64,000 nucleotides of DNA from contig JBDRJV010000017.1 in the NCBI GenBank assembly GCA_043814605.1, positions 5,445 through 69,444 on the forward strand. The letters run 5' to 3'. The notes beneath the pieces were generated by a model, which saw only the letters and a program-made list of their open reading frames with translations, was not told the DNA's origin and ran no database searches. A program made the position numbers and the translations under genes. This DNA is from Candidatus Omnitrophota bacterium. Its GTDB lineage: Bacteria; Omnitrophota; Gorgyraeia; B26-G9. Of this stretch, positions 1 through 46,962 are shown in pieces (the first letter of the stretch is position 1; each line of letters begins with the position of its first letter).

Positions 1-579
1 GGCTGGTATCCATTGGGAAAACCACGTATTGTCACAGAAGCTGATCATAACATTATCAAGAAACTTGATGGAAAACCCGCGGCACGGATTTATGAGGATT
101 ATTTTGGCAAAAGAGTCGCAGATTTAAAAAATGAACCAATGGCGCGGATGTCGGTAATGTATCCTTTGGGGATGTCTATTCCCGAAGAAGAAGAATGTAT
201 TATTCGGAATGCGATGCGAATTAATGAAAAGGGGGAATTAATCTGTGCCGGTGAAGTACCGTGTGGATCGGAAATTCGGGTAATGATGGGTTCAAAAGAA
301 ACCGCTTTAAAAGCAGCTAAAAAAGCCGCCGAGGTTGCTCTGAGCGGGCTGCGTAAAAAAGCGGAAATAGTCTTTGTTTTTGATTCTGTTTCCCGCGAAC
401 GATTATTTGGGCGAAAATCTAAAGAAGAAATTGAAATTGTTCGAGAAACTTTTGGCAAAGACACCCCGATTATTGGATTTTATACTTACGGAGAGCAGGC
501 TCCTTTAGGCGCTACAGTACATTTGGGGCAGACTTTTTTTCATAATGAAACAATTGTTGTGTTTGCGATTGGAGAATAA
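1..579 (+). CDS. FIST C-domain sensor protein, 5'-partial (reading frame open from window edge; track start at 13 is an internal TTG)
   Basis: Frame open from nt 1. Sequence resembles FIST_C domain proteins (…GFYTYGEQAPLG… C-terminal pattern). Directly upstream of a histidine kinase, consistent with FIST sensor operons. Confidence 0.55.
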   Translation, partial: GWYPLGKPRIVTEADHNIIKKLDGKPAARIYEDYFGKRVADLKNEPMARMSVMYPLGMSIPEEEECIIRNAMRINEKGELICAGEVPCGSEIRVMMGSKETALKAAKKAAEVALSGLRKKAEIVFVFDSVSRERLFGRKSKEEIEIVRETFGKDTPIIGFYTYGEQAPLGATVHLGQTFFHNETIVVFAIGE

Positions 580-585
580 TTTTTA

Positions 586-2166
586 ATGAAAATAAATATC
601 TGGGTTATCTTAATTGTGGGAGCCGCAGTATTAAGTGTAATCATCATTGTCAATAGTACAATTACTAAGCTAATGGGCGGATTTATCTTGCTGGTATTAT
701 TAGCCTATTTAGCGGAAGTTTCACGTGAGGAACGTGAACAAATCGCGAAGATGCAAAGAGCGTTAGATAAATTAAGAAATGCCTATAATGAACTTGATGA
801 ACAAGCCAAAATTATTATCCGTACTGACCTTGAACTGAACCGCACCCAGGAAGAACTCGATAAAAAAATCAATGGATTGTATACTTTACACGAATTAGGT
901 AAGTTGATCAGCTCAACATTGGATGTACAGCTTTTATTTTCTCAAATCACAGAACCTTTGATTTTAAAACTGGGTTTTGAGAAGACGATGATTTTTTTAA
1001 AAGAAAAAAGTGACGAAAATCCCCAATGCAAAGCGGCAATTGGATTTGACCATGAGCATATAAAACAGATTGAACAAGCTAATATCACTGCAGAATTTTT
1101 AAAAAATGTATTTGAAAGAGGCAGTTCTGTCTGGGTAAAGAGTGTTGATGGTGCAAGTAATGAGCAGAAAGAATGGCTGAAATTATTTGGTGTCTCTTCA
1201 TTTGTAATTGTTCCCATGGTAATTAAGGAGCATGTCGAAGGGTATATTTTTGTGGGAAATACGACAACCTATAATTATATATCGGAAGGAGATATTGATT
1301 CTCTATTTATTCTTTCTAATCAGCTGGCAATTGCTTTAGAAAATGCCCGCCTTTATGAAGAATTAAAAAAATCACATGATCAATTAGAAATTAGAGTTGA
1401 AGAAAGGACAAAAGAGTTAGCCGAAGCAAATAAGCAATTAGTTCGTTTAAATAAAATGAAATCTGACTTTGTTTCTGCGGTCTCCCATGAATTGCGTACT
1501 CCGCTAACTTCTATAAAAGGGTATGCATCGATACTAAGTGCCGGCCGGCTGGGGCAAGTGAGCGAAGTGCAGTCAGAAAAATTAGATAAAATCAATAAAC
1601 ATAGTGACGAATTAATAAAATTGGTTAATGATTTATTGGATATTGCCAGAATTGAATCCGGCAAGATCGGCATGAGCATAAAACATGCATCCCTGACAGA
1701 AATTATTCGGAGTATTGCGGATTTATTTTTCCCGCAAACTGATGAAAAACATATCGCTTTAAAATTAGAAATGCCTCCGGAACCGATAAAAGTTTGGATG
1801 GATCCGAGTCAAATATCGCGTGTGTTTATTAATCTGATCGGTAATGCGATGAAGTTTACACCGGAAAATGGTTCGATCACCATAAAAGTTAAACCCCTCC
1901 AGGATTACATAAATATTGCAATTACGGATTCAGGAATTGGTATTTCTGAGGAAGATTTACCGCGATTATTTGATGAGTTTTACCGTGTGGATAATGCGAT
2001 TAATGCCGAAAAGAAGGGCACGGGATTAGGGTTACCGCTGGTTAAAAAGATTATTGAGGCCCATAAAGGAAAAATATGGGCTACAAGTGAAGTAGGAAAA
2101 GGTACTACTTTTCATTTTACTCTCTCTTTACACGAAGTTGAAGATTCTCAATTAAACGTCCATTAA
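586..2166 (+). CDS. Sensor histidine kinase, membrane-anchored, GAF + HisKA + HATPase_c
   Basis: N-terminal TM segment and coiled coil. GAF-like region. H-box SHELRTPL. G-boxes GTGLGL near the C-terminus. Starts 7 nt after the FIST gene stop. Confidence 0.85.
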   Translation: MKINIWVILIVGAAVLSVIIIVNSTITKLMGGFILLVLLAYLAEVSREEREQIAKMQRALDKLRNAYNELDEQAKIIIRTDLELNRTQEELDKKINGLYTLHELGKLISSTLDVQLLFSQITEPLILKLGFEKTMIFLKEKSDENPQCKAAIGFDHEHIKQIEQANITAEFLKNVFERGSSVWVKSVDGASNEQKEWLKLFGVSSFVIVPMVIKEHVEGYIFVGNTTTYNYISEGDIDSLFILSNQLAIALENARLYEELKKSHDQLEIRVEERTKELAEANKQLVRLNKMKSDFVSAVSHELRTPLTSIKGYASILSAGRLGQVSEVQSEKLDKINKHSDELIKLVNDLLDIARIESGKIGMSIKHASLTEIIRSIADLFFPQTDEKHIALKLEMPPEPIKVWMDPSQISRVFINLIGNAMKFTPENGSITIKVKPLQDYINIAITDSGIGISEEDLPRLFDEFYRVDNAINAEKKGTGLGLPLVKKIIEAHKGKIWATSEVGKGTTFHFTLSLHEVEDSQLNVH

Positions 2167-2170
2167 ATAG

Positions 2171-3118
2171 GTGATGTATATAATGCGCAAACAAAAAATA
2201 CTAATTATTGATGATGAACCAGACATTCGCGATGTTTTAAAAATTACACTGGAATGTGAAGATTTTGAAGTGTATGAGGCACGTGATGGAGTGGAGGGGC
2301 TTGAGAAAGTTCATAAAAATTCTCCGGATCTGGTTATTTTAGACTATAAAATGCCCAAGATGAATGGGCATGAAGTCTGTCAAATATTAAAAAAAGATAT
2401 TCTTTTGAGGCATATGCCCATTATTATGCTTACGGGAAAAGGAGAGACTCAGGATAAAATAAAAGGCATAAATGCTGGGGCGGATGATTATTTGGTTAAA
2501 CCATTTGACCCGCAGGAGCTGGTTGCGCGTATAAAAATGATTGTACGCAGAAGTACACGTGATTTGGATGCGAATCCATTGAGCCGTTTACCGGGCAATG
2601 TAACGATTATGAGCGAACTAGAAGCCGTAATTAACAGCGGTAAAAATTTTGCTGTCTGCTACCTGGATTTAGATAAATTTAAAGCGTTTAATGATACTTA
2701 CGGTTTTGAACACGGAGATGAGGTAATTCGTGAAACAGCCAGAATTATACTCAGTGTTGTCCAGGAAATTGGGGATAAAGAAGATTTTGTCGGTCATATC
2801 GGCGGTGATGACTATGTAATTTTAACTACAATAGAAAAAGCCGAAGAAATTTGTATAAGAATTATCCGCGAATTTGACGAAGTAGCGCCATCTTTTTATA
2901 ATCAATTAGATAGACAAAGGGGTTTTATCTTAGCGCAAGACAGACAAGGTAATGCCATGCAAATACCGCTAATCTCTGTTTCGATCGGAATTGTTACTAA
3001 CGAAAATCGGCACATTTCTCATGTTGCCGAAATTGGTGAAATCGGCGCTGAACTCAAAAAAGCAGCCAAAGCTAATTCGGGAAGTAATTTTGTTAAGGAT
3101 AGCCGCAAAGCAGAATAA
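2171..3118 (+). CDS. Response regulator, REC domain fused to GGDEF-like domain (signature GGDDY instead of GG[DE]EF)
   Basis: REC motifs (LIIDDE…, DLVILDYKMP, phospho-acceptor Asp context, KPF). C-terminal block LDLDKFKAFNDTYGFEHGDEV … GHIGGDDYVIL aligns to the GGDEF fold, but the A-site reads GGDDY. Confidence 0.8.
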   Translation: MMYIMRKQKILIIDDEPDIRDVLKITLECEDFEVYEARDGVEGLEKVHKNSPDLVILDYKMPKMNGHEVCQILKKDILLRHMPIIMLTGKGETQDKIKGINAGADDYLVKPFDPQELVARIKMIVRRSTRDLDANPLSRLPGNVTIMSELEAVINSGKNFAVCYLDLDKFKAFNDTYGFEHGDEVIRETARIILSVVQEIGDKEDFVGHIGGDDYVILTTIEKAEEICIRIIREFDEVAPSFYNQLDRQRGFILAQDRQGNAMQIPLISVSIGIVTNENRHISHVAEIGEIGAELKKAAKANSGSNFVKDSRKAE

Positions 3119-3126
3119 TATTTATT

Positions 3127-4221
3127 TTAATGACTGAAATAGCTTTTTTCAAATGCGTATTTGCGCGCTGTTCTCAGACTTATTTTTGCGCCATCTAAAA
3201 GATCATGTAATGACTGATCCATTGTTTGCATGCCTTCACGTCCGCCGCTTTCAATCATATTTTTTATTTGAAATGTTTTATTCTCCCGAATAAGATTCCT
3301 AATCCCCGTATTTGCAACCATAACTTCACAGGCCAAATATCTTGTATCTCCATCACGCGACGGAACTAAATTTTGGGAAACAACAATATTTATTGCCTCG
3401 GCAAATTGAATTCTAATCTGAGCCTGTTGTTCTGCAGGGAAAACATCAATCACCCGGCTCACAGACTGCGCTGCCGAACGGGTATGCAAGGTACCAAATA
3501 CAAGGTGACCGGTTTCTGCGGCAGTAACTGCATTAGAAATAGTTTCTAAATCACGCATTTCTCCCACTAAAATAACATCGGGATCTTCTCTTAAAGCCGC
3601 CCGTAAGGCCTGCGCAAAAGTTTTAGAATCAGTTCCAATCTCTCTTTGATTAATAACACTGCGTTTATGTGTATGCAGATATTCTATGGGATCTTCTAAA
3701 GTAATTATATGTGTTTGCCGTTCGTTATTAATTTGATCAATTATCGAAGCTAAGGTTGTGGATTTTCCGCTGCCCGTTGGGCCAGTTACTAAAACCAGCC
3801 CTCTTTGTAATTCGCAAGCTTTTCTCACTGAAGCGGGTAAGCCTAAAGTTTCCAGCGGTTTAATCTTTTGCGGAATTTGCCTTAATGCCGCACATATTCC
3901 ATTACGGTCATGATAAATATTCAACCGGAATCGTGCAGAATTCCCGACTGTGACTCCAAAATCTAGTTCCTGGCCTCTATTATTAAAATCAATTTCCCGG
4001 GCCGGAGGAGTAATACTGGTTAAAATTTCCCGGATGTCATTTTCCTGGAGTTTTTCATTACCCAAAGGCATTAGGCTTTCCGCTTTTCTTACCATGGGCG
4101 GTAAGCCGACGCATAAATGTAAATCTGAAATTTCTTTTTCCAGTATTTCCTTAAATAAATTTCTATATTTTTCCTGCATACAGGATTGATTATAAAATGA
4201 ATTTTCAGTCTCGTCAATCAA
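3127..4221 (-). CDS. pilT: Type IV pilus retraction ATPase PilT/PilU family
   Basis: Walker A GPTGSGKSTT, Walker B ILVGEMRD, and PilT-like length (364 aa) with PilT-like N-terminal domain. Confidence 0.85.
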   Translation of the reverse strand: MIDETENSFYNQSCMQEKYRNLFKEILEKEISDLHLCVGLPPMVRKAESLMPLGNEKLQENDIREILTSITPPAREIDFNNRGQELDFGVTVGNSARFRLNIYHDRNGICAALRQIPQKIKPLETLGLPASVRKACELQRGLVLVTGPTGSGKSTTLASIIDQINNERQTHIITLEDPIEYLHTHKRSVINQREIGTDSKTFAQALRAALREDPDVILVGEMRDLETISNAVTAAETGHLVFGTLHTRSAAQSVSRVIDVFPAEQQAQIRIQFAEAINIVVSQNLVPSRDGDTRYLACEVMVANTGIRNLIRENKTFQIKNMIESGGREGMQTMDQSLHDLLDGAKISLRTARKYAFEKSYFSH

Positions 4222-4422
4222 ATAAATTTAATTAATAAAATAATATTGATGTTAAACTTTGATAATGTTAAAATAAATTAACCGAAAAATTAATATTAAT
4301 AAGAGTATCAAGTAACAACTGTTAATTTTAATCAGTTTTTTATAATCAAGTGAATATAAATAATCATTAAAAATTAATTTTAACTATGTTTTAATTTGCA
4401 GTAATTACACAGTCTGAATTGT

Positions 4423-6057
4423 ATGAAAAAAATCACTTTTGGCTTAAGAAGAAAACTGTATTTAGCTAGTATGCTGGTTACGATTATCGGTGCGGTAATC
4501 GTATGCTGGTATGTAATAACTTATTATCGGGTAATTATTACAGAAGATTTAGAGAAAAGGGCAATCACCTTAGCTAAAAATCTGGCACATGAATGTATCG
4601 GACCGATTATCTTAAAAGATGAAAACACTTTATTAAGTTTGGTTAATAGGATTTTAAAAGAACGTGATATAATTTATACGGCTATTTATGATAAAGACGG
4701 AAATATTCTCGTTCAAGGCGGGCCTTTTAATATAGAAAACATTCCTCAGTCAGTTAAGAAAAAATCTTTAATCACCCATGTAAATTTAGTACAAAAATAT
4801 TTATCCGCTAAGGAAAATTTAATTTATGATATTAGTGTTCCCCTGCATACTGAGGGTTCATTAGAGAACAATGATTCCGAAGACAAGAGCATAGATGAAG
4901 AAAGCCTTTTTTTCACAGGTGAAGGAAAAGAAAGTTTTAGTGTAAAAGTAGGATTAGCCAGAATTGGTATTTCTTTTAAAAACAGTAACCAATCAATTAT
5001 TATTCACCGTAATAAAATTATTTTTATAAACTTAGTGTTATACTGTATTTTTTTAATACTCATGCACTTTATTGTAAATTCAATACTTATGCCGATCAGC
5101 CTTTTATTAAAAGGAACTCAGAAAATCGGAGCCGGAGACTTGAACTATAAAGTTAGAATTAAAAGCTCAGATGAAATCGGACAACTGGCTGATTCTTTTA
5201 ATAAAATGGTAGACAATTTAAATATTTCGACAACATCCATTGAAAACCTTAACAAAGAAATTATGGAGAGAAAATTTGCCGAAGAAAAGCTAAAAGAAGC
5301 TTATCAGGAACTGAAAGAAGCCCAGCAGCAGCTTTTACAATCAAGTAAACTTTCCGCTATGGGGCAAATGGCCGCAGGCATATCCCATGAACTTAACCAG
5401 CCCTTGACCGGAATTAAAGGGTTTGCACAAATTTTAGCCATGGATTTAGGTAAAGACAGCCCCTATCTTACAGATGTAAATAATATTATTGAACAGGCAA
5501 ACCGCATGGATAGCATCATTCAAAATGTACGTTTTTTTGCGCGAAAATCAGAATTTAAATTAGAGAAATTAAATGTTAATGATCCGATAAAAAATGCAGT
5601 GAACTTACTTCAGGAGCAATTAAAAATACACAGTATCGAATTAATTTCGGAACTTGATCCGGATTTGCCGCAAATTTATGGAGATAATAATCAATTGCAG
5701 CAGATATTTTTAAATTTAGTAACTAATGGCCGCGATGCGATTGAGATGGCCCATAAATCTGAACCGGGAAAAATTATTATAAAAAGCCAGCAATGCAAAG
5801 AAGATAAATATATTTTAGTTACCTTCGAAGATAATGGCTGTGGAATTCATAAAGAAAATTTGGAAAATATTTTTAATCCTTTTTTTACAACAAAAGCACC
5901 GAATGGGGGAATGGGGTTAGGATTATCCATAGTTTATCGAATTGCTGAAAACCATAAGGCAATTATTGACGTTGAAAGTGAACAGGGGGAATTCACTATT
6001 TTTAAAATTATTTTCCCCGTTGCAGATGATTATATTGCCTTTGATAAAAAAGCTTGA
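4423..6057 (+). CDS. Sensor histidine kinase with two TM segments, extracytoplasmic domain, HAMP, HisKA, HATPase_c
   Basis: TM1 near residue 15 and TM2 near residue 200, followed by a HAMP-like linker (GDLNYKVRIKSSDEIGQLADSFNKM). H-box SHELNQPL. N/G-boxes (NLVTNGRDA, GGMGLGLSI). Confidence 0.85.
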   Translation: MKKITFGLRRKLYLASMLVTIIGAVIVCWYVITYYRVIITEDLEKRAITLAKNLAHECIGPIILKDENTLLSLVNRILKERDIIYTAIYDKDGNILVQGGPFNIENIPQSVKKKSLITHVNLVQKYLSAKENLIYDISVPLHTEGSLENNDSEDKSIDEESLFFTGEGKESFSVKVGLARIGISFKNSNQSIIIHRNKIIFINLVLYCIFLILMHFIVNSILMPISLLLKGTQKIGAGDLNYKVRIKSSDEIGQLADSFNKMVDNLNISTTSIENLNKEIMERKFAEEKLKEAYQELKEAQQQLLQSSKLSAMGQMAAGISHELNQPLTGIKGFAQILAMDLGKDSPYLTDVNNIIEQANRMDSIIQNVRFFARKSEFKLEKLNVNDPIKNAVNLLQEQLKIHSIELISELDPDLPQIYGDNNQLQQIFLNLVTNGRDAIEMAHKSEPGKIIIKSQQCKEDKYILVTFEDNGCGIHKENLENIFNPFFTTKAPNGGMGLGLSIVYRIAENHKAIIDVESEQGEFTIFKIIFPVADDYIAFDKKA

Positions 6058-6148
6058 TGATTTTAAATTAAAAAAATTATAAAGATAAGATATTTTCAAT
6101 TTTTTATGTTTTCTTTTTTAATCATTAAACTTAGGAGAAAATAATTCT

Positions 6149-6709
6149 ATGCCGGATACCTCTAAAGGTATGCTTTTTAATATGATCCTTAAGTTTATCC
6201 AACAAAAAGGTAAACCGGAATTAATCCATAAAATCAGCGCACAATTGGATAAACCGCTTAAATATATTGATTTTTTTGATTACCCTGTACAAGAATTAAT
6301 GCTGATTACTGAAAAAGCCGCTAAAGGTGTTTTCCCGGATAAAAAAATCGAAACAGCGTTATATACTCTCGCCCGAGAAACATTCACTATTTTAGCGCAA
6401 ACTCCTATCCTGAAAGCAATGCTACCCCGCGCAAAAAGAAATCCGATGAGTGTAGCGCAAAAAATTCCTTTTTTATACAGACAAATCAACTGTTTTGGTA
6501 ATATTTCAGTAGTTGATGTAAAAGAAAAAAGCTGCCGGATAATTTTTAAAAATTATAAAAGTTTTCCCCATTTACAACAAGGATTTTTACAACAAGCCTG
6601 TGATTATTTAGGTTTTATTACTGAAGTCAGTTTAGATATTATTAAGTTTAAAAATAATGGTAACGGGGACATTTTAACTGATTTTGATTTAAGTTTGAAA
6701 TTAAGTTGA
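6149..6709 (+). CDS. Cassette protein A1: ~186-aa conserved hypothetical, putative small-ligand sensor domain (paralog family of 4 in window)
   Basis: ORF with own RBS. 55-65% identity to 7286..7846 and 8327..8887. Conserved blocks TKGMxFN, GKPLKYIDFFDY, FKNYxSxPxLQQGFLQ, NNGNGDI. No TM segment or signal peptide. Confidence 0.7.
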   Translation: MPDTSKGMLFNMILKFIQQKGKPELIHKISAQLDKPLKYIDFFDYPVQELMLITEKAAKGVFPDKKIETALYTLARETFTILAQTPILKAMLPRAKRNPMSVAQKIPFLYRQINCFGNISVVDVKEKSCRIIFKNYKSFPHLQQGFLQQACDYLGFITEVSLDIIKFKNNGNGDILTDFDLSLKLS

Positions 6710-6731
6710 TTTTAAATCAGAGGAGGGTTCT

Positions 6732-7103
6732 GTGGGTAACCGCATAAAGTGGATAGTGTACAAGAACAAACGAATTCTTTTCCACGATTACTCAGGCATT
6801 AGAGGGTTTCAGGGTGAAGGGGAGCAATTAGCACAAGAGGTGAATGAGTTTGTAGAGAAATTGACAGAATATAATATTTTAGAATTAGTTGATGTAAGGA
6901 ATTCATTTGGTGATTTAGAATCAGTAAAAAGGCTTAAAGAAATATCTAAACGATTAAAGCCGCGCATAAAAAAATCTGCAGTAATCGGCGTTAGCGGGAT
7001 AAAAAAAGTTATTTTAGATGCAATTAATACTTTTTCCGAAAGAAAAATTAAACCGTTTAAAACTGAGGAAGAAGCAAAAGAATGGCTGATTTTGGAAGAT
7101 TAA
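6732..7103 (+). CDS. Cassette protein B1: ~123-aa STAS-like (anti-sigma-antagonist-like) protein, GTG start
   Basis: AGGAGGG RBS 4 nt before GTG. Conserved LELVDVRNSFGDLESV (resembles the DLSxVxFxDSSG phosphoserine loop) and a C-terminal …EEEAKEWL helix typical of STAS/SpoIIAA fold. ~70% identity to the copy-2 partner. Confidence 0.6.
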   Translation: MGNRIKWIVYKNKRILFHDYSGIRGFQGEGEQLAQEVNEFVEKLTEYNILELVDVRNSFGDLESVKRLKEISKRLKPRIKKSAVIGVSGIKKVILDAINTFSERKIKPFKTEEEAKEWLILED

Positions 7104-7145
7104 ATCGTTTTAAAGGTTTATAATATTATAATTTTTGGTTTATAC

Positions 7146-7240
7146 ATCCGCGGCCTAAAACCGCGCCCATTTATGGCGCGGATAAAAGGAGGCCGCTTGA
7201 GTATTCCACCCCAGGAACCACGGGCTTTAGCCCGTGGGGG
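7146..7240. repeat. GC-rich nested palindromic element (two strong hairpins) in the intergenic spacer between cassette copies 1 and 2
   Basis: Inner stem CCGCGCC-catttat-GGCGCGG (7161..7181) is nested inside GCGGCC…GGCCGC (7150..7196). A second hairpin CCACGGGC-ttta-GCCCGTGG lies at 7218..7237. GC content is far above local background. Confidence 0.45.
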
Positions 7241-7285
7241 TTACATTTCTGGATAATTTCTAAAAAGAAATCGAGAGAATTTTAA

Positions 7286-7846
7286 ATGCCGGCAACAACA
7301 AAAGGAATGTTTTTTAATGTGGCTTTTAAACTGATTACGGCAAAAGGTCACGCGGAATTAATAGAAAAAATCAGTAAAAAGCTGGGCAAACCTCTTAAAT
7401 ATATTGATTTTTTTGATTATCCCATAGAGGAATTTATGCTGATTGTCGAAGAGGCGATTAAATATATTTACCCGGATAAAAAATTCGAAGAAGCATTATA
7501 TATTTTATCCGAAGAATCATTTGACCTGATCATGCAGACCCCGATAATTAAAGCAGTATTATCCGGAGCAAAGAAAAATATGCAAAATATTGCAAAACGC
7601 ATTCCTTTTATCTATGAACAATTCAATCACTTTGGAAAAATTTCTATTATTGATTTAAAAGAAAAAAACTGTGTGATTGCTTTTAAAAATTATAAAACTT
7701 ATCCGGAACTGCAGCAGGGTTTTTTACAAAGAACCTTTGATTTTCTAAAGCTTAATCACACTGTAGAACTAAACATCCATAAATTTAAAAATAATGGAAA
7801 CGGCGATATTACCGCTGATTTTGATATAAGCTTAAAATGGGGTTAA
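7286..7846 (+). CDS. Cassette protein A2 (paralog of 6149..6709)
   Basis: Same conserved blocks and length (186 aa) as A1. Own start context. Confidence 0.7.
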   Translation: MPATTKGMFFNVAFKLITAKGHAELIEKISKKLGKPLKYIDFFDYPIEEFMLIVEEAIKYIYPDKKFEEALYILSEESFDLIMQTPIIKAVLSGAKKNMQNIAKRIPFIYEQFNHFGKISIIDLKEKNCVIAFKNYKTYPELQQGFLQRTFDFLKLNHTVELNIHKFKNNGNGDITADFDISLKWG

Positions 7847-7868
7847 TTTTTTATAAAGGGTGGTTTAT

Positions 7869-8240
7869 ATGACTAATCGGATAAGGTGGATAGTATATAA
7901 AAACAAGCGTATTCTTCTAGTTGATCTTTCTGGGATTAGAGGGTTTAAGGGCGAAGGGGAGCAATTAGCAAAAGCCGCGGCTGATTTTGTGGATAAATTA
8001 AGAGAATATGAGCTCATCGAATTAATTGATGTCCGGAATTCATTTGGTGATTTAGAATCAGTGAAAACAATGAAAGAACTATCTAAAAAATTAAAGCCGC
8101 ACATAAAGAAATCTGCAATCATTGGAGTAAGTGGGATAAAAAAAGTTATTCTCGATGCGATTAATTCTTTTGCCGAAAGAAAGATTAAACCGTTTAATAC
8201 AGAGGAAGAAGCAAAAGAATGGCTGATTTTAGAAGATTGA
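7869..8240 (+). CDS. Cassette protein B2, STAS-like (track start 7860 is GTG; ATG at 7869 preferred)
   Basis: MTNRIRWIVYKNKRIL…VRNSFGDLESVK…EEEAKEWLILED. ~70% identical to B1. Confidence 0.6.
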   Translation: MTNRIRWIVYKNKRILLVDLSGIRGFKGEGEQLAKAAADFVDKLREYELIELIDVRNSFGDLESVKTMKELSKKLKPHIKKSAIIGVSGIKKVILDAINSFAERKIKPFNTEEEAKEWLILED

Positions 8241-8326
8241 ATGTTAAAAAATTTTAAAGCATTAAAGGTTTAATAATTATTCGCTGAATTATTTAAATAA
8301 TAACTATTATGGGGAAGAGATTTTAA

Positions 8327-8887
8327 ATGCCAGAAACAGCAAAAGGTATACTTTTTAATGTAAATTTAAAATTCATTAAAAATAAGAATAAACCAGAATT
8401 ACTGGAAAAAATCAGTAAAAAGCTGGGCAAACCGCTTAAATATATTGATTTTTTTGATTATCCTGCCCAGGAATTATTGGTTATTGTTGAGGAAATTGCT
8501 AAAAATATTTTTCCCCATAAAAAAACTGACGAAGTTTACTATTTATTAGCACAGGAAAACTTTGCCACTCTTGCGCAAACACCGATTCTAAAAGCAATGC
8601 TGCCTCGCGCAAAAAAAAATCCGCGGATTATTGCGCCAAAAATTCCGTTTTTATATAAGCAAATTTACCGCTTCGGAGAAATTTCTGTGGTTGACCTAGA
8701 AGAAAAAAGCTGCCGTATAGTTTTTAAAAATTATGTTAGTTTGCCGCAGTTACAACAGGGTTTTTTGCAAAAAGTTTCTGATGTATTAGGGTTTAATCAT
8801 AAAGTAGGCTTAAATATCCACAAATTTATAAATAATGGTAACGGAGACATAAAAGCAGATTTTGATTTAACCCTTCGCTGGGATTAA
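8327..8887 (+). CDS. Cassette protein A3 (paralog)
   Basis: 186 aa, same conserved blocks. Confidence 0.7.
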   Translation: MPETAKGILFNVNLKFIKNKNKPELLEKISKKLGKPLKYIDFFDYPAQELLVIVEEIAKNIFPHKKTDEVYYLLAQENFATLAQTPILKAMLPRAKKNPRIIAPKIPFLYKQIYRFGEISVVDLEEKSCRIVFKNYVSLPQLQQGFLQKVSDVLGFNHKVGLNIHKFINNGNGDIKADFDLTLRWD

Positions 8888-8919
8888 AAATACTTAATTA
8901 TAAGGAGTAATAAAGTTTT

Positions 8920-9291
8920 ATGAGTAACCGCATACGCTGGATTGATTATAAGGGAAAAAAAATACTTGTGCACGATTATTCTGAACTTAAAGGATTTAAT
9001 AGGGGGGGAGAACAAGTTTTAAATGAAGTGTCTAATTTCATTGATAAATTAACTGAGAATAATATACTCGAATTAATTGATGTGAGAAATTCTTATGGCG
9101 ATTTAGACTCAATAAAAAAAATGAAGGAAATGTCCAAAAAAATGCAGCCGCATGTAAAGAAATGTGCAATAATCGGGGTGACGGGTGTAAAAAAAGTTCT
9201 TTTAGATACAATTAATGTTTTTTCCCAGCGCCAGATTAAACCGTTTGCCACAGAAGAGGAAGCCAAAGAATGGCTGGTGGCTGAGGATTAG
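8920..9291 (+). CDS. Cassette protein B3, STAS-like
   Basis: 123 aa with NSYGDLDS loop and C-terminal EEEAKEWLVAED. More diverged than B1/B2. Confidence 0.6.
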   Translation: MSNRIRWIDYKGKKILVHDYSELKGFNRGGEQVLNEVSNFIDKLTENNILELIDVRNSYGDLDSIKKMKEMSKKMQPHVKKCAIIGVTGVKKVLLDTINVFSQRQIKPFATEEEAKEWLVAED

Positions 9292-9293
9292 AT

Positions 9294-9746
9294 ATGAGGA
9301 ATAAAATTTATTCAAGGTTAAAACTCTTAGGAAATAAAGAATATTGGATAAAAATATTTATGTTTGGATTTCCTTATTTTCTTATTGTTGATGCATTAAA
9401 AGTTATTTTAATTAATATTCTGCTCATAACTCGTGGAATGTCAACTTACTTGGCTCACTCTACTTCAATGTTTTTATTGATTGGAGATATGGGATTATCT
9501 ATTGGTTTAACTTTTGCAGCGTTGCTTGTTTTATGTGGAAGTATCGGTTTAATACTGAAAAAGAACTGGGCCAGGGGTTATATGTTTATAATATTCCTAC
9601 ATTATTGCATTTTCCAGATATTATTTATACTGTATGCTTCAGGTAATATGTCTTCCTCTTTAATCGAAATGATTCCGGCAACCATTATTTATATGCTAAT
9701 AATTTATGTTTATACTCGTCCTAAAGTAAGGGAGCGGTTTAAATGA
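9294..9746 (+). CDS. Hypothetical integral membrane protein (4 predicted TM helices)
   Basis: Hydrophobic 150-aa ORF starting 3 nt after the B3 stop. Confidence 0.5.
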   Translation: MRNKIYSRLKLLGNKEYWIKIFMFGFPYFLIVDALKVILINILLITRGMSTYLAHSTSMFLLIGDMGLSIGLTFAALLVLCGSIGLILKKNWARGYMFIIFLHYCIFQILFILYASGNMSSSLIEMIPATIIYMLIIYVYTRPKVRERFK

Positions 9747-9765
9747 TAAAAATGGAGGTGAGGAG

Positions 9766-10020
9766 ATGAAGGAGAAAGAAATAGGTGTTATAAATCATTA
9801 CTTTAATAAACTTTCTGTAGGAATTATTGAATTAAAGGGCTCTTTAAAAGTAGGAGACACTATCCATATAAAGGGGGCTCACGATGATTTCAGCCAAACG
9901 ATTGATTCTATGCAAATAGAACATGAAACAGTTGAATCTGCTAAAAAAGGTGAATTTGTGGGTATCAAGGTTGTGCAGCAAGTTCATGTCAACGATAAGG
10001 TATTTTTAGTTGCAGAATAA
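9766..10020 (+). CDS. Small conserved hypothetical (84 aa), beta-rich, possibly EF-Tu domain-2-like barrel
   Basis: GGAGGTGAGGAG RBS. Pattern GxIxL.G.LKVGDTIHIKG…GEFVGIKV resembles translation-factor domain II-like small proteins. Weak assignment. Confidence 0.4.
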   Translation: MKEKEIGVINHYFNKLSVGIIELKGSLKVGDTIHIKGAHDDFSQTIDSMQIEHETVESAKKGEFVGIKVVQQVHVNDKVFLVAE

Positions 10021-10056
10021 TATAGCGGTTGGAATATTACCATACAATTTTATTAA

Positions 10057-10085
10057 GGGGATAGTCTTATAGCTATCCCTTTTTT
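10057..10085 (+). terminator. Intrinsic terminator (GGGATAG-loop-CTATCCC + T6)
   Basis: 7-bp stem, 8-nt loop, TTTTTT run directly after the 9766..10020 gene. Part of a 37-bp element repeated at 13387..13423. Confidence 0.6.
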
Positions 10086-10086
10086 A

Positions 10087-10115
10087 TTGACTAAATGTAA
10101 AGATAGGAGTATGAT
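10087..10115 (+). promoter_or_regulatory. Near-consensus sigma70-type promoter TTGACT-17 nt-TATGAT
   Basis: -35 TTGACT at 10087..10092, exact 17-nt spacer, -10 TATGAT at 10110..10115. AGGAGGG SD at ~10150 precedes ATG 10163. Confidence 0.5.
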
Positions 10116-10162
10116 TCTTATATTAAATAATTACAAAAATAACTAAAAAAAGGAGGGTTAAA

Positions 10163-10387
10163 ATGGAAGGACAGGAAAGTAAGCATGACCGTTTTAAAAG
10201 ATTAGCCAGTAAAAGGGTTCAGAATGCCATTAAGAAAATAGAGATCATTGGTAATCTTGCCTCACCGGGGTATGAGTATTCAGAAGAAGATGTAGAAAAA
10301 ATCACAAGCTCACTTCAAGCAACTCTTGATCAGGTTAAAAACGCTTTTTCAAAAAGAAAGCCAAAAGTTCAGAACTTTACTTTATAA
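10163..10387 (+). CDS. Small Lys-rich hypothetical protein (74 aa) with strong expression signals
   Basis: Consensus promoter, AAAAAGGAGGG SD 6 nt upstream of ATG, and a 13-bp perfect terminator immediately downstream. No recognisable family. Confidence 0.6.
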   Translation: MEGQESKHDRFKRLASKRVQNAIKKIEIIGNLASPGYEYSEEDVEKITSSLQATLDQVKNAFSKRKPKVQNFTL

Positions 10388-10388
10388 A

Positions 10389-10424
10389 ACAGATTAAAAT
10401 CCTGATGATTTTAATCTGTTTTTT
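10389..10424 (+). terminator. Strong intrinsic terminator
   Basis: 13-bp perfect stem ACAGATTAAAATC / GATTTTAATCTGT, 5-nt loop, followed by TTTTTT. Confidence 0.8.
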
Positions 10425-10437
10425 GATTAAACATAAG

Positions 10438-10478
10438 TACAAACTCTGTAAATAAATTACAGAGTTTTTGTACTTTTA
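10438..10478. terminator. Second imperfect hairpin + T-run (possible back-up/bidirectional terminator)
   Basis: GTACAAACTCTGTA-aataaat-TACAGAGTTTTTGTAC, then TTTTAT. Confidence 0.4.
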
Positions 10479-10894
10479 TAAGGTTTTATGAATTTTGATA
10501 ATTTTTGATGTAAATAGACATCTATATGGACACCAGGTAGATGGGGCTACAGAGAATCTAACCCCAGTGGGCATATGAGACTTTTATCTTACATTAGTTC
10601 AATAAATACTTGACAATTTATTAAAATATGAGGAAGAAGTGGCGAAAATAGCGGCGGAGAACGAGTAGATATGAAACAATGGCGGAAGAAAAATAAAAGA
10701 GGAGATTTAAGATAGAAAGGGGCTATGCTGCCCCTTGAAGATAAATGAAGCGCAAAGCACCCTTGCCTAAACATTGCAAATTATCTAATGATAATTTGCT
10801 ACTAGGCTACGGGCATAAATTAGAACTTATTACTTATGTCACTTTGTTCCATAAGCAATGTTCTCATTTAGAAAACAGCCCTGGGAAACAGCGA

Positions 10895-13423: not shown

Positions 13424-13673
13424 TAACTAGTAGCATAAGACTCCGAACCATCAGAGAGATAGTTAGTTGACTTTTCTTGCCAAAAACTTTAAACTAATTG
13501 TAATATTTTAATTTAACATTTATCATTCGTAATTTATAATTTGTCACTTGTCATTTGCCCCAAATGATGCAACATCTTTAGAGAAATCTTCGGGGGCCCG
13601 AAGAAAAACTTCTCTGGATATCCACATTCGGGATAATTTGTAATTCCCTCCAAAGGAGGGCGTGGGGTCATGG

Positions 13674-13749
13674 CGCAGTTGGGAGCGCGCCTCGTTCGCA
13701 ACGAGGAGGTCGGGGGTTCGAATCCCCCTGACTCCACCAAAAAAAATAA
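13674..13749 (+). tRNA. tRNA-Ala (anticodon CGC), CCA encoded
   Basis: Hand-folded cloverleaf: acceptor GGGGTCA/TGACTCC with G3:U70 wobble (Ala identity element), D-arm GCGC/GCGC, anticodon stem CCTCG/CGAGG with loop TTCGCAA, T-arm GGGGG-TTCGAAT-CCCCC, then ACCA. Confidence 0.85.
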
Positions 13750-13926
13750 ACCCTCGACCTCAAAAAGGGGATTTTAAGGGGAAAGATTGTTTCCCCTTAT
13801 CAGGGTATTAGAACTTCTTTGCGGAAGGAAAAGGACCAGTCCCGGCATAGGCGGGACGATAGGGGAAAACCTTAAGGGTTGTCCCCTATAGAGCGAATAA
13901 AATGAGCGATGAGGGCGGGGTTCGAA

Positions 13927-14003: not shown

Positions 14004-14294
14004 GAGGAAGCTTTTGCAACGAGATGACTCCAATGCTCATTTTTAGTGTCCGTAGGGGAAAACGTAGTTTTCCCCTTTCGGCGCTCACCATCCTCATGGG
14101 GCTCGCTGTCACCCCTTTCCCAGAGGACTATTGCTTTTCAAGGAAAGGGAAGAGTCTTATCCTCCCTTTCCTTGGTAACCATACCTACCTAAAAAGGTGT
14201 CGACTTCGTCGACCAATAATTAAAAAAATTTTAAAAAATATTTAACGATAACCCAAGTTAGTATCCTATTTTTAAGCGATGCTATTGATTAAAG

Positions 14295-32925: not shown

Positions 32926-32999
32926 GCGGGCGTAGTTCAGTGGCAGAACATCAGCTTCCCAAGCTGAATACGAGGGTTCGATTCCCTTCGCCCGCTCCA
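32926..32999 (+). tRNA. tRNA-Gly (anticodon CCC), CCA encoded
   Basis: Hand-folded: acceptor GCGGGCG/CGCCCGC, D-arm GTTC/GAAC, anticodon stem TCAGC/GCTGA with loop TTCCCAA, T-arm GAGGG-TTCGATT-CCCTT, then TCCA. Confidence 0.85.
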
Positions 33000-33118
33000 G
33001 AAGATGGAACTCCTAAGGGAATCGAAGCAAATGAGCGCCGACCCTAGGGAGGAAAAGCGAGCAGGATTGCGAGCGTCAGCGAATGCAGGGGAGCCTACGC
33101 AGAGAGCAATACGATGTT

Positions 33119-33177
33119 GCGAACGTAGTGGGCGATTTCCTTCGCCCGCTCCAGAAGATTGAACTCCTAAGGGAATC
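33119..33177 (+). pseudogene. Internally deleted tRNA-Gly pseudo-copy plus repeat of the tRNA's 3' flank
   Basis: GCGAACGTAGT|GGGCGATTTCCTTCGCCCGCTCCA reproduces the 5' acceptor and 3' T-arm/acceptor with the middle missing. 44-bp repeat (2 mismatches) of 32981..33027 including the downstream AAGGGAATC box. Confidence 0.55.
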
Positions 33178-41633: not shown

Positions 41634-43031
41634 ATGGCTAAGGATTCAATGGATTTTTATGCAGAGATGAGAGCGAATACACGTATCCGGTCCCGCATTA
41701 AAGTTATGATTAAAATAATTAATGAAGACGGGTCTTTGTCTGTAGCCAAAGAAACCACGGCGCGCGATATCAGTGTGCAGGGGATGTATTTTTTATTCCC
41801 AGAACCTTTAGCTTTCAATAAAAAAGTAAATGTTACTTTCCGACTGCCTAAATTAACTAATCCCGTTGAAATTATCGGCCGCGTTATTCGTATTGAAGAA
41901 GGAGAAAATAATAAATTTGGCGTGGGAATTATTTTTGATGAAATAAAAAATGATAATCAAGAAACAATTTTCCGACAAATTGAATCAATGGATATTTTAA
42001 GATTATTGCAAATTACCGCGCAAAAAAAAGCTTCTGATCTGCATTTAACCTATAATCGTCCTCCGATTCTTAGGTTGCATGGCAGATTGCACCCGTTAGA
42101 AATGGATCCTTTAAATACAGTTGAATTAAAAAATATGATTTATAGTATTTTAGATGATGAGCAAATAGCACGATTTGAAAAGTTTAAAGAATTAGATTTT
42201 GCTTTTTCCCCTAATCCCGATTTAAGGTTTCGGGCAAATATTCATGTTCAAAGAGGTAATGTTGAGGGTACTTTCCGGGTTATTATGCCTGATTTGAAAA
42301 CTACTCAGGAATTAGGACTGCCGAGTGTTGTTGAAAAACTCGCCTTGCTGAAAAAAGGAATTGTCGTTATTGCCGGACCTACCGGTTCAGGCAAAACAAC
42401 AACCTTGGCGGCAATGGTTGATATTATCAATCGCAGAAAAGAATCTGTAATTATTTGTCTTGAAGATCCTATTGAATATATCCACACAAATCTCAATTCA
42501 ATAATTAAACAAAGGGAAATAGGCACAGATACTTTATCTTTTTCTGTTGCATTAAAAAGAACATTACGCCAGGATCCAGATGTAATTCTTGTGGGGGAAT
42601 TATTAGATAATGAAACCGTAAGAACTGTTATCACAGCTGCAGAAACCGGACACCTAGTTTTAACATCTTTACATGCTCCAGATACAGTACAAGCGATTGA
42701 CCGTTTAATCAGTATTTTCCCACCGCAACAACGGCATCAGGCTTGTATACAGCTGGGCAATGTTCTGCAAGGCATTGTTACACAAGCACTTATACCAAAA
42801 AAAGACCGGGAGACAAGGGTTGTAGCAACAGAAGTTATGATTATGACTGATGCTATCCGAAATCATATTCGTGAGGGGCAAACTATTCAAATCCCTTCAT
42901 CAATACAAACAGGAGCTCGTTATGGAATGCATACTATGACCGAAAGTTTTAAGCGTCTGTATAATGCTAATATTATTTCTAAGGAAACAGCTATTGATTA
43001 CTGTCCGGAATTAGCGCAAATTTTAACTTGA
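41634..43031 (+). CDS. PilZ-domain-fused PilT-like type IV pilus retraction ATPase
   Basis: N-terminal ~110 aa with PilZ-like RxxxR…D-x-S-x-x-G motif (RIRSRIKV … ARDISVQGMYF). Then PilT core with Walker A GPTGSGKTTT, Walker B ILVGELLD, His/Asp boxes. Confidence 0.8.
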   Translation: MAKDSMDFYAEMRANTRIRSRIKVMIKIINEDGSLSVAKETTARDISVQGMYFLFPEPLAFNKKVNVTFRLPKLTNPVEIIGRVIRIEEGENNKFGVGIIFDEIKNDNQETIFRQIESMDILRLLQITAQKKASDLHLTYNRPPILRLHGRLHPLEMDPLNTVELKNMIYSILDDEQIARFEKFKELDFAFSPNPDLRFRANIHVQRGNVEGTFRVIMPDLKTTQELGLPSVVEKLALLKKGIVVIAGPTGSGKTTTLAAMVDIINRRKESVIICLEDPIEYIHTNLNSIIKQREIGTDTLSFSVALKRTLRQDPDVILVGELLDNETVRTVITAAETGHLVLTSLHAPDTVQAIDRLISIFPPQQRHQACIQLGNVLQGIVTQALIPKKDRETRVVATEVMIMTDAIRNHIREGQTIQIPSSIQTGARYGMHTMTESFKRLYNANIISKETAIDYCPELAQILT

Positions 43032-43067
43032 CATAATTTTTAGCTTGTGTTAAACTTTTAACCGTAG

Positions 43068-43580
43068 TTGTTGTTAACAAGAAGGATACGAAAAATGATA
43101 GACAAAACAATTGAAAGCAGGATAAAACAATTAAGTGAATTTGTAGAATTATGGGCAGAGTTTTATGAATTATATAAACGTGCTACTAATCAACAAACAT
43201 TCTCTGAAGAAGAAGAAAAAAATTTTTTAGAATTAAAAAGTAGTTTAGCGAGGAAATACCAAGGTCTTATGGATTCTCTAGGCATAAAGCCAACTGCCGA
43301 AGACCGAACCTTTGATGTTATTTCACAAGTTATGAGTCTTAAAAGCATCATTTCATTATCTCCATTACAAATGGAAAAAATGGAAAACGATTGGCATAAT
43401 TCTTACATAACTTTAAATAAAATAATGGGTTCCTTAGAAAACAGAAAAAATGAATTAGCAAAAATTAATGTATTTTCATTATTTATAAAAAGATTGTTTA
43501 CAAATCCTTTTTTTGCGTTAATACTCATAATTATTGTGATTTCTTTTATTTACTATATTGTAATAAATATTTTTGCCTAA
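43068..43580 (+). CDS. Hypothetical protein with C-terminal TM helix
   Basis: ORF only. Coiled-coil-like N-terminal part. Confidence 0.45.
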   Translation: MLLTRRIRKMIDKTIESRIKQLSEFVELWAEFYELYKRATNQQTFSEEEEKNFLELKSSLARKYQGLMDSLGIKPTAEDRTFDVISQVMSLKSIISLSPLQMEKMENDWHNSYITLNKIMGSLENRKNELAKINVFSLFIKRLFTNPFFALILIIIVISFIYYIVINIFA

Positions 43581-43637
43581 ATTAGGTTTTTTATAAAAAT
43601 TTTTTAATGACAAGGACTGAAAGGAGGAGTACTTAAT

Positions 43638-43910
43638 ATGACAAAAAAAGATATTGTACTCAAAATAGCCAGCGAAACAAAAATGAAACAGCAGGATATT
43701 AAGAAAATTGTACAAAAAACATTGGATGCTGTTATTGATAGCCTGGTGAATGGAAAAACTGTAGAATTACGTAATTTTGGGATTTTTAAAGTAAAATCTC
43801 GCAAAGGTAGAACTGGACGTAATCCCAGAACTGGTCAGGTAGTGCCTGTTCCACCAAAAAAAGTAGTAGTTTTTAAGCCCGGCTTAGAAATGAAAAAACT
43901 TGTAAAATAA
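43638..43910 (+). CDS. hup: HU/IHF family DNA-binding protein
   Basis: Signature GRNPRTG in the β-arm. 90 aa. AGGAGG SD. Confidence 0.9.
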   Translation: MTKKDIVLKIASETKMKQQDIKKIVQKTLDAVIDSLVNGKTVELRNFGIFKVKSRKGRTGRNPRTGQVVPVPPKKVVVFKPGLEMKKLVK

Positions 43911-43996
43911 GTGGGTCATAATCTAAAAAAAATAAATTTTTAACTTTAAACCCCAATCATTACGTATTGGGGTTTTATGTTTTGAAAGTAATAAAA

Positions 43997-45259
43997 ATGA
44001 AAATTAAAGCATTAAAAGGTGTTCATGATATTCTTCCCGATCAAATCAATACATGGAATTATGTTTTAAATCAAGCCGCGGAAAAATTCCAGGTTTACGG
44101 CTATCGTCAAATTATTATTCCGATTATTGAAGAAAGTTGTTTGTTTATAAGAGGGATTGGCCAAGAAACAGATATTATCGAAAAAGAAATGTATGCTTTT
44201 GAAGACCGAGGAAAAAGGAAGATAGCTTTACGTCCAGAAGCTACAGCTAGTGTTGTCCGGGCTTATTTGGAACATAACCTGGCCCAGCAGGGATTAGTTA
44301 AGCTATTTTATTCAGGCGCAATGTTCCGCGGCGAAAAACCGCAAGCAGGAAGAAACCGGCAATTTTATCAAATCGGCGTGGAATCCTTAGGATCCTCGAG
44401 TCCTTATCTTGATGCGGAAACCATTACTCTGGCTGTTGATTATCTTACCCAATTAGGGCTTAAAGAATTTAAACTTTTAATTAATACTGTGGGCAGTGTT
44501 CAAGATAAAGAAATTTTTTCGAAAAAATTAAAAAATTATTTTAAGGAAAAAACCGAACAGCTTTGTGCCAATTGTCAAAAACGTTATCATCGTAGTGTGC
44601 TCAGAATCCTCGACTGTAAAAATAAATCCTGCCGTAACTTGATTGAGAAAGCACCCATGATCACGGATTCTCTCTCAGAAAAATCAAAGACAGAATTTCA
44701 ATTAGTTAAAAAATTACTGCTAAATTCCGGTATAAATTTTATTGAATCAAATCATTTAGTGAGAGGATTGGACTACTACACAAAAACGGTATTTGAAATT
44801 ATTCATGATGGATTAGGCGCTCAAAACACAATTTTAGCCGGTGGCCGTTATGATGATTTAGTTGCCGAATTGGGAGGAACTCCTACAGGGGCAATTGGAT
44901 TTGCCGCAGGCATGGAAAGATTAATTTTAGCCATGTCTGCAGAAAATATAAAAATCTCCGCTGTCAAAAAGAAAAGTGTTTATATTATTGGATTAGGCCA
45001 TATTGCTCATGATAAAGCATGGGAAATTGCCCATAATTTAAGACAATTAAATATTGTAACGCACATAAATTTGTCTGAAAAATCTTTAAAATCACTGATG
45101 CGTGAAGCTAATAAAATTAATTGTGATTATGTACTAATTTTAGGAGATGATGAATTAAAAACTAATTCTATTATTATTAAAGATATGGATAAAGGAATAC
45201 AATCTTTAATAGCATTAGATGATTTCGGTAATAAAATTATTAATTTAATTAATGATTAA
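43997..45259 (+). CDS. hisS: Histidine--tRNA ligase (track ORF begins at 43967; ATG 43997 preferred)
   Basis: Class II aaRS motifs (FRGEKPQAGRNRQFYQ, GGRYDDL) and C-terminal anticodon-binding domain. Confidence 0.9.
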   Translation: MKIKALKGVHDILPDQINTWNYVLNQAAEKFQVYGYRQIIIPIIEESCLFIRGIGQETDIIEKEMYAFEDRGKRKIALRPEATASVVRAYLEHNLAQQGLVKLFYSGAMFRGEKPQAGRNRQFYQIGVESLGSSSPYLDAETITLAVDYLTQLGLKEFKLLINTVGSVQDKEIFSKKLKNYFKEKTEQLCANCQKRYHRSVLRILDCKNKSCRNLIEKAPMITDSLSEKSKTEFQLVKKLLLNSGINFIESNHLVRGLDYYTKTVFEIIHDGLGAQNTILAGGRYDDLVAELGGTPTGAIGFAAGMERLILAMSAENIKISAVKKKSVYIIGLGHIAHDKAWEIAHNLRQLNIVTHINLSEKSLKSLMREANKINCDYVLILGDDELKTNSIIIKDMDKGIQSLIALDDFGNKIINLIND

Positions 45260-45289
45260 GTCTGTTTAATTTTACTGATTATAAAAATT

Positions 45290-46443
45290 GTGATAAAAGA
45301 AACTTTTCAATCCACTCAAGATGCTAGTTTAGCACCATATGCAACTTTAAGTAAAAATACTAAAGGCAGAAAATTTCCTGAACCAGAACACGGTTATCGA
45401 GCTATTTTTCAAAGAGACCGGGACAGGATTATTCATTCGCATGCATTCAGGCGTCTGCAATATAAAACTCAAGTTTTTGTCAACCATGAAGGAGACCAAT
45501 ATCGCACTAGACTCACGCATACACTAGAAGTTGTCCAAATTGCCAGAACTATTGCCAGAGCTCTGCATTTAAATGAAGACCTGGTTGAAGCAATTGCTTT
45601 AGCGCATGATATCGGACACACTCCTTTTGGTCATGCCGGGGAAGATGCTTTACGTGAGCTAATGGCAGATCACGGGGGATTCGAACATAATCGGCAAGGA
45701 TTAAGAGTGGTTGATTATTTAGAAGAAAGATATCCTGATTTTAAGGGTTTAAATTTAACCTGGGAAGTGAGAGAAGGGATCATTAAACATGCTTCAACTT
45801 ATGATATTCCCTTAATCACAGAGGAATTTAATGCGAAAAAAAATCCATCTTTAGAGGCTCAGGTTGTAGATATTGCCGATGAAATTGCTTATAATAACCA
45901 TGATTTAGATGATGGCATAAGTAGTGGCTTGATCAAAGAAGGGGATTTAAATAATATTGCTATCTGGACTCAAGCTCAGGAAACTCTGGCCTTAAAAAAT
46001 AAAAAAATTCCGCCAATATAAAAAAATGTCAGATTATCCGTTCGCTTATTAATTTTCAAGTAACTGCTTTGGTAGAAAATTCCTTAAAAAAAATAGTAGA
46101 ACTCGGCATTGATTCTCCGGATAAAACAGCAGCCCAGGATATTAAAATCATTGATTTTCATTCCTCTGAGATAAAGCAAAATATTCAAGAATTAAAAACT
46201 TTTTTGTACAAAAAATTATATAGAAATTATAAAGTTGTCCGAATGTCCAGCAAGGCGCAGAGATTTTTAAAAGAATTATTTAACGTATACCTTAAAAATC
46301 CTGAACAATTACCCAGTGACTATAACCAGAGGATCCAGTCTGAAGGGTTATATCAAGTTATTTGTGATTATATTGCGGGAATGACTGATCGTTATGCTCT
46401 GGATGAATACAAAAAACTATTCCATCCCTGGGAAAAAGTTTAA
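45290..46443 (+). pseudogene. dGTP triphosphohydrolase-like HD-domain gene split by a frameshift (45290..46021 frame 2; 46003..46443 frame 1)
   Basis: N-part carries HD motifs (HSHAFRRL…, [12 protein letters not shown]). C-part carries the family's C-terminal TDRYA motif. Frames switch within A6/A7 homopolymer runs at ~45994..46007. Confidence 0.55.
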
Positions 46444-46945: not shown

Positions 46946-46962
46946 ATTGAGGCCAGAGTCCG

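Follow-up and report, generated by a model that had tools for sequence, protein, structure and literature searches.

Tandem triplication of a gene pair encoding a haem-less H-NOX-fold protein and a STAS-fold protein beside a histidine kinase gene in Candidatus Omnitrophota

Six open reading frames (ORFs) on the + strand of Candidatus Omnitrophota contig JBDRJV010000017.1 form three in-register copies of a two-gene cassette. The stretch of this contig that was analysed, 64,000 nucleotides (nt) long, is called the window, and all coordinates of the locus are window positions; the cassettes occupy nt 6149–9291. The first gene of each cassette (A1, A2 and A3) encodes a DUF2378 protein with a haem-less H-NOX fold, and the second (B1, B2 and B3) encodes a SpoIIAA-like protein with a STAS fold. 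The gene of an orphan membrane histidine kinase lies upstream (Table 1). On the best-supported reading, a two-gene unit has undergone a tandem expansion specific to this lineage, and the locus is a new arrangement of known parts.

Table 1. Coordinates of the cassette genes and of the features around them
Feature	Position (nt)	Strand	Description
Orphan membrane histidine kinase	4423–6057	+	Ends 91 nt upstream of A1
A1	6149–6709	+	186-aa DUF2378/TIGR02265 protein, haem-less H-NOX fold
B1	6732–7103	+	123-aa SpoIIAA-like (PF11964) STAS-fold protein; GTG start, GGAGG before start, 22 nt past A1 stop
GC-rich double-hairpin island	7145–7244	+	100 nt, 60% GC (genome about 33%), inside the 182-nt B1–A2 spacer
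A2	7286–7846	+	DUF2378 paralog; PF09536 1.8e-12; 59% identity to A1
B2	7869–8240	+	SpoIIAA-like STAS paralog; PF11964 27.1 bits; 78% identity to B1
A3	8327–8887	+	DUF2378 paralog; PF09536 1.2e-09; HNOB 0.0046 (below cut-off); 66% identity to A1
B3	8920–9291	+	SpoIIAA-like STAS paralog; PF11964 29.8 bits; 63% identity to B1
Membrane protein gene	9294–9746	+	150 aa, basic (pI 9.9), about four hydrophobic segments; 2 nt past B3 stop
Small protein gene	9766–10020	+	84 aa; GTP_EFTU_D2 (EF-Tu domain 2 beta-barrel) 26.1 bits, under the 30.3 cut-off
A4	62181–62744	-	Solitary diverged DUF2378 paralog; PF09536 1.3e-18, best Pfam score of the four A; 41% identity to A1

Three copies of a two-gene cassette

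A repeat search located three in-register copies of 300 nt, with spacings of 1137 and 1041/1051 nt, and the DNA identity between the cassette copies is 69–81%. Among the ORFs of the window, hidden Markov models (HMMs) built from the A and B copies pick out four A genes and three B genes and no others; the cassette ORFs match with E values of 1e-68 to 1e-91. Since the matches are confined to the A and B ORFs at such E values, the triplication is not due to chance. Global alignment of the proteins gives 60% identity for A2/A3 and 63% for B2/B3, the other pairs being listed in Table 1. The B2 start was set at ATG 7869, which agrees with the N-termini of B1 and B3; an in-frame alternative GTG is at nt 7860. 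The A-to-B spacers are 22, 22 and 32 nt, and each B gene is preceded by a Shine-Dalgarno-like sequence. A4 has no B gene beside it; the gene that comes after it encodes a TPR/MORN protein.

A preliminary description of this DNA, made from the letters alone, had reported a triplicated two-gene cassette directly downstream of a HAMP histidine kinase, and a fourth A-type paralog standing alone. The ORF coordinates, the identities, the repeat search and the HMMs bear out the triplication, the domains and two hydrophobic segments of the kinase gene's product confirm the kinase, and A4 is a real gene on the minus strand. The identities estimated then agree with ours for A (55–65%, measured 59–66%) and were slightly too low for B (about 55–70%, measured 63–78%). 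Every gene was also credited with its own ribosome-binding site; the Shine-Dalgarno-like sequences agree with this for the B genes, and the site before A2 is weak.

The copies go back to old duplications, and purifying selection acts on all six genes. By the Nei-Gojobori method, synonymous divergence (dS) is 1.19–1.30 and the ratio of nonsynonymous to synonymous divergence (dN/dS) is 0.18–0.24 for every paralog pair except B1/B2. With dS near 1.2 and dN/dS near 0.2, the earlier view of an old duplication with maintained function is well founded. The dS of B1/B2 is 0.63, versus 1.24 for A1/A2, and the identity between cassettes 1 and 2 climbs towards the 3′ end of the B gene. The pattern suggests gene conversion or recombination among the cassettes, between 1 and 2 across the B gene.

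The A protein

All four A proteins exceed the cut-off of PF09536 (38.7–67.8 bits versus 22.2), and the A proteins also exceed that of TIGR02265 (38–43 bits versus 25). It had been stated that neither A nor B matches a family that can be named with confidence. This was wrong, since both match curated families and NCBI already names the window proteins accordingly, A as 'DUF2378 family protein' and B as 'STAS/SEC14 domain-containing protein'.

A fold search assigns the three-dimensional fold of H-NOX to the A proteins. Their scores against the HNOB family (PF07700), 12.7–19.9 bits, are under its gathering score of 25.5, and a sequence search of the PDB with A gave only a marginal H-NOX match (E 0.12). 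The residues that hold haem are absent. At the position aligned with the proximal haem His in the H-NOX 6bde profile, A has an invariant Pro107. The Y-x-S-x-R propionate-binding motif, Y-K-S-S-R in 6bde, aligns with F133-K-N135-Y-K137, and no His or Cys is invariant across A1–A4. A is a haem-less H-NOX-fold protein.

The DUF2378 family is small, with 371 of 1.84 billion representative proteins matching at E ≤1e-3 and 10 at E ≤1e-30, and we found no functional study of DUF2378, TIGR02265 or PF09536 in the literature. Most members are stand-alone proteins of 175–215 aa. Among the longer ones, the domain is C-terminal to a Hanks-type Ser/Thr kinase in four and N-terminal to an AraC helix-turn-helix (HTH) domain in one. 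These fusions make 'sensor domain' a fair reading of DUF2378.

The divergence among A1–A3 is greatest in helices αA, αC and αD, where 25–38% of the positions are invariant. The loop G-K-P-L-K-Y-I-D-F-F-D-Y-P (residues 34–46) is invariant at 12 of its 13 positions. In H-NOX proteins such as Tt H-NOX, helices αA and αD contribute to the distal ligand pocket. The variable helices together with the constant loop would fit a diversified ligand specificity with a shared interaction surface.

The B protein

The B proteins pass the gathering cut-off of PF11964 and show the STAS fold, as had been guessed at the level of the fold; they are assigned to this family and not to the canonical STAS family PF01740. 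A sequence search of the PDB with B gave no match. An alignment of 28 B-family sequences displays three near-invariant motifs: an N-terminal K-W-I-x-Y-K-G-K-x-I-L-Y-V-D-Y, a K-x-A-x-x-G-x-x-G, and a C-terminal helix F-x-T-E-E-E-A-K-E-W-L. No Ser or Thr is conserved in these 28 sequences at the position of the SpoIIAA DSSG phospho-site, which is variable. The position corresponds to D61-L62 of B by a sequence register that is itself inferred and anchored on the conserved F-x-D. Judged from this alignment, B is probably a non-phosphorylatable STAS-fold protein.

Structures 2OOK and 2Q3L represent PF11964, formerly DUF3478. The only paper found on the family left its function open and proposed its members as carriers of small non-polar ligands, with open/closed switching at the membrane (PMC2954212).

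A STAS protein next to a putative sensor could belong to a partner-switching or stressosome module of the RsbR/RsbS/RsbT or RsbV/RsbW type, with B as a phosphorylatable protein of the anti-anti-sigma type. Such a module is highly improbable, and we reject it for the window, where the kinase, the phosphatase, the sigma factor and the phospho-site are all missing. The Pfam scan covered the window ORFs of at least 110 aa, nine of which matched no family, and found among them no HATPase_c_2/RsbW/SpoIIAB-type kinase, no SpoIIE/PP2C and no sigma factor; the lack of a GHKL serine kinase and a PP2C phosphatase, already remarked on, holds for every ORF scanned. The place of the DSSG serine is not conserved in the B family, and the assignment of B to PF11964 instead of PF01740 also speaks against the module. 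A stressosome is further disfavoured by the separation of A and B into two genes and by the lack of an RsbT-type kinase.

Proposed function of the A–B pairs

The kinase gene upstream of A1 encodes HAMP (6.8e-14), HisKA (3.1e-15) and HATPase_c (2.8e-22) domains by Pfam, with a weak match to sCache_3_2. Hydropathy places a first transmembrane segment at about aa 10–40, an extracytoplasmic part of about 160 aa and a second transmembrane segment at about aa 192–230, after which come the HAMP, HisKA and HATPase_c domains. There is no response regulator gene next to the kinase gene.

Tentatively, we read the locus as a co-transcribed unit, a haem-less H-NOX-fold sensor with a STAS adaptor, that has undergone a lineage-specific expansion and possibly modulates the adjacent kinase. 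A would be a stand-alone cytoplasmic ligand-binding sensor with an H-NOX/V4R-type fold. As A is haem-less, its ligand would not be haem-bound nitric oxide (NO) or O2; a small molecule, possibly hydrophobic or anionic, is more likely. B would be translated from the same transcript as A, 22–32 nt downstream. We infer that each A interacts with its own B, as adaptor or co-receptor, and that the two together provide a signalling enzyme with an auxiliary input. The orphan HAMP kinase would be the most economical target, by analogy with HnoX-HnoK; stand-alone H-NOX proteins are known to regulate adjacent kinases, as in that pair, or diguanylate cyclases (PMC8846402). The three pairs may then represent three ligand specificities converging on one output.

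A stronger form of this proposal is improbable. It would have the locus encode an undescribed two-component accessory input, built of obligate DUF2378–PF11964 pairs, in which a split, kinase-independent analogue of RsbR occurs three times and all three pairs act on one HAMP kinase.

Several features of the locus itself weigh against the sensor–adaptor reading. The closest partner of A1 is A3, and the closest partner of B1 is B2. As these similarity patterns disagree, the two genes of the cassette have not strictly evolved as a unit. A and B also lack charge complementarity, both proteins being basic. The GC-rich hairpins between B1 and A2 may interrupt the transcript, and the promoter and terminator scans barely exceed the expectation from shuffled sequence. 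To these are added the observations from other genomes, given below.

A and B genes at other loci

When A1, B1 and the A alignment were used in word-indexed homology searches, almost only the window's own paralogs came back; close relatives are rare. A profile search of genome contigs with the A alignment found only four distant loci, all of Myxococcota. For comparison, 12 other A loci were assembled: four of Myxococcota (L001–L004), L005 and L026 (GCA_975902405.1), L025, L027, L028, L029 and L032, and one of WWE3/Katanobacteria that was recovered from two samples (L030 and L031) and is counted once. A second Omnitrophota metagenome-assembled genome (MAG), the genome most relevant to the comparison, carries two A homologs (P0010 and P0013, the latter MFH1459159.1) on a 264-kb contig and lies outside this sample. 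The other B loci number 19 (L006–L024). Genes were detected by HMM search of all six reading frames.

A B gene is present in none of the 12 A loci, and an A gene in none of the 19 B loci, L006 being too short to judge with 91 nt upstream of its B gene. An adjacent histidine kinase is likewise present in none of the 12 A loci. The pairing of A with B and the adjacency to a kinase are unique to this contig so far. The preliminary description had read A and B as partner modules, an idea that was to fail if the two were never found together in other genomes. In the present sample they never are, and comparison with other loci lends the idea no support. Moreover, the three A–B adjacencies in the window share one ancestral juxtaposition and thus constitute one observation, not three. 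Since the other loci preserve neither the partnership nor the link to a kinase, the adjacency is possibly a historical accident copied by tandem duplication.

In L006, a frame of 17 codons upstream of the B homolog bears a superficial resemblance to the C-terminus of A. It was rejected as an A remnant, because the A HMM does not detect it.

Both families multiply on their own. B genes without A stand in tandem in L007 (five, nt 3305–5425), L020 (four, nt 1–1819), L008 (three, nt 2002–3127), L015 (two, nt 159–1009) and L016 (two, nt 1988–2788). The members of these arrays are 26–45% identical to B, keep the invariant C-terminal F-x-TEEEAKEWL, and come from unrelated metagenome contigs. Tandem multiplication seems to be a habit of the whole B family, and apparently an undescribed one. 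Two A genes without B are in tandem in L005 (nt 561–1121 and 1154–1714; GCA_975902405.1), and the WWE3 locus L030/L031 has three A copies within 4.5 kb (nt 6001–6546, 9359–9907 and 9962–10504), near an IS1595 transposase gene and again with no B. These clusters in WWE3, of the CPR, and in GCA_975902405.1 show that DUF2378 extends beyond Myxococcota and undergoes local multiplication in several phyla.

The neighbours of the other A and B genes vary. Most of the other A loci lie among housekeeping genes; in L028, the A gene, a close homolog, sits between PhoU-LMWPc and GAF-HD-GYP genes. B genes elsewhere have an AsnC regulator, an MFS transporter, an acyl-CoA ligase, a GDSL lipase or a TPR glycosyltransferase as neighbours, with no consistency.

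In L002 (nt 8687–10558) and L003 (nt 8696–10555), both from Myxococcaceae MAGs, the DUF2378 gene is immediately 3′ of a gene for a FabH-like 3-oxoacyl-ACP synthase III. This neighbour is a possible hint of an acyl- or polyketide-derived ligand.

The distribution bears directly on the alternative that A and B are unrelated in function. Two amplification-prone families would have met once, the segment would have been duplicated twice, and the copies would have subfunctionalised, with no complex of A with B or with the kinase. We regard this as rather unlikely, and yet it accounts for the B arrays without A, the A clusters without B, the solitary A4 in the same genome, the lack of A/B co-localisation outside the window, and the incongruent similarity patterns of A and B. 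It is opposed, weakly, by the strict alternation of A and B, the short spacers with Shine-Dalgarno-like sequences, and the retention of every gene in three cassettes over a dS above 1.

Another possibility is that A and B act not in signalling but at the membrane, as soluble proteins that bind or carry small hydrophobic molecules (lipid, quinone or acyl-derived). In that case A, through its H-NOX/Bet3-type pocket, and B, through its STAS/SEC14-type cavity, would share a ligand class, the protein with four transmembrane segments encoded in the unit would belong to the same function, and the kinase would be coincidental. This too is unlikely. That DUF2378 occurs fused to Ser/Thr kinases and to an AraC HTH points to a sensor domain, the B neighbours elsewhere are inconsistent, and the locus has no lipid-metabolism gene. 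Where the sensed ligand is hydrophobic, the carrier explanation overlaps with the sensor–adaptor reading.

DUF2378 and PF11964 are curated families, and for neither has a function been established by experiment. Among the loci found they are joined only here, where they have stayed together through two ancient duplications and stand beside a kinase gene. With three A:B pairs and one kinase, the locus is a tractable test case for asking whether H-NOX-fold proteins that lack haem serve as auxiliary sensors and what role PF11964 has. Should the accessory-input reading prove true, these two uncharacterised families would gain their first function. Should the association instead be purely historical, what is left is an ordinary paralog expansion, specific to one lineage, in the genome of an uncultured member of the Omnitrophota.

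Other features of the window

The GC-rich island between B1 and A2 is predicted to fold at -59.4 kcal/mol (z = -4.1) into two strong GC hairpins without a T-run. The window contains it only once, and Rfam has no matching family. The island may serve in RNA processing or stability or as a partial terminator between cassette 1 and cassettes 2 and 3, or it may be an unknown small RNA.

The membrane protein gene that follows B3 is probably co-transcribed with it, since the two are only 2 nt apart; its product has no Pfam family above cut-off. The sole terminator-like site of the region, a hairpin followed by a T-run, is at nt 10055–10082, just past the small protein gene. Screened with PADLOC, A, B, the kinase and the genes downstream matched no defence system.

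At the start of the window, nt 13–3118 (+) hold a FIST_C gene, which is cut by the window edge, a GAF-HisKA-HATPase kinase gene (nt 586–2166) and a response regulator–GGDEF gene (nt 2171–3118). This operon has the gene layout of NosP-NahK-NarR, an NO-responsive system in which the FIST protein NosP regulates NahK (PMC8846402). It is a second 'stand-alone sensor + kinase' unit beside the locus, and with it just upstream the region is one of auxiliary-sensor systems. Second-messenger genes are concentrated at nt 41634–48462 (+) and 55538–57085 (+); the set comprises a fusion of PilZ to a T2SSE secretion ATPase, a stand-alone PilZ, a GAF-HD-GYP phosphodiesterase and a TPR-linked adenylate/guanylate cyclase.

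Further GC-rich non-coding islands (nt 13816–13886, 14063–14131 and 33026–33134) adjoin two tRNA genes, tRNA-Ala at nt 13664–13739 and another tRNA at nt 32926–32996. None has an Rfam family above threshold; there was one sub-threshold tmRNA match (13.1 bits), and ARAGORN found no tmRNA. The islands are possible unannotated structured RNAs. The ThyX gene at nt 58099–59616 (-) is of double length, encoding 505 aa with two Thy1 domain stretches in place of the usual single domain.

Comparison with known systems

The locus resembles HnoX-HnoK of Shewanella and Vibrio (PMC8846402) in that a stand-alone H-NOX-fold gene adjoins a histidine kinase gene. However, A has neither the proximal His nor the Y-x-S-x-R motif, and its HNOB score is below the cut-off; without these residues it holds no haem and cannot sense NO. 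The A genes are also downstream of the kinase, triplicated and paired with a STAS gene, and a kinase link is unseen in the 12 other DUF2378 loci.

With the Myxococcus paralogous family DUF2378/TIGR02265 (PF09536), the four A proteins share scores above the family cut-offs and the presence of multiple paralogs per genome. Their subfamily, made up of Omnitrophota and a few metagenome relatives, is only 21–29% identical to the myxobacterial proteins, and no other case with a STAS gene attached was found. The PF11964 proteins of Shewanella are linked to UspA and TonB neighbours (PMC2954212), not to a sensor or a kinase. Within PF11964, the B proteins form a subfamily with near-invariant N- and C-terminal motifs, which occurs typically as tandem arrays in metagenomes.

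In the RsbR paralogs of the stressosome, an N-terminal non-haem globin sensor and a C-terminal STAS domain form a single protein. In the present locus, by contrast, A and B are made as two polypeptides, the sensor has the H-NOX and not the globin fold, and the window has no RsbS, RsbT, RsbU or RsbW, no sigma factor and no conserved phospho-site. What the two have in common is the use, without haem, of a sensor fold that usually binds it, and an organisation in which several sensor and STAS units could feed one pathway.

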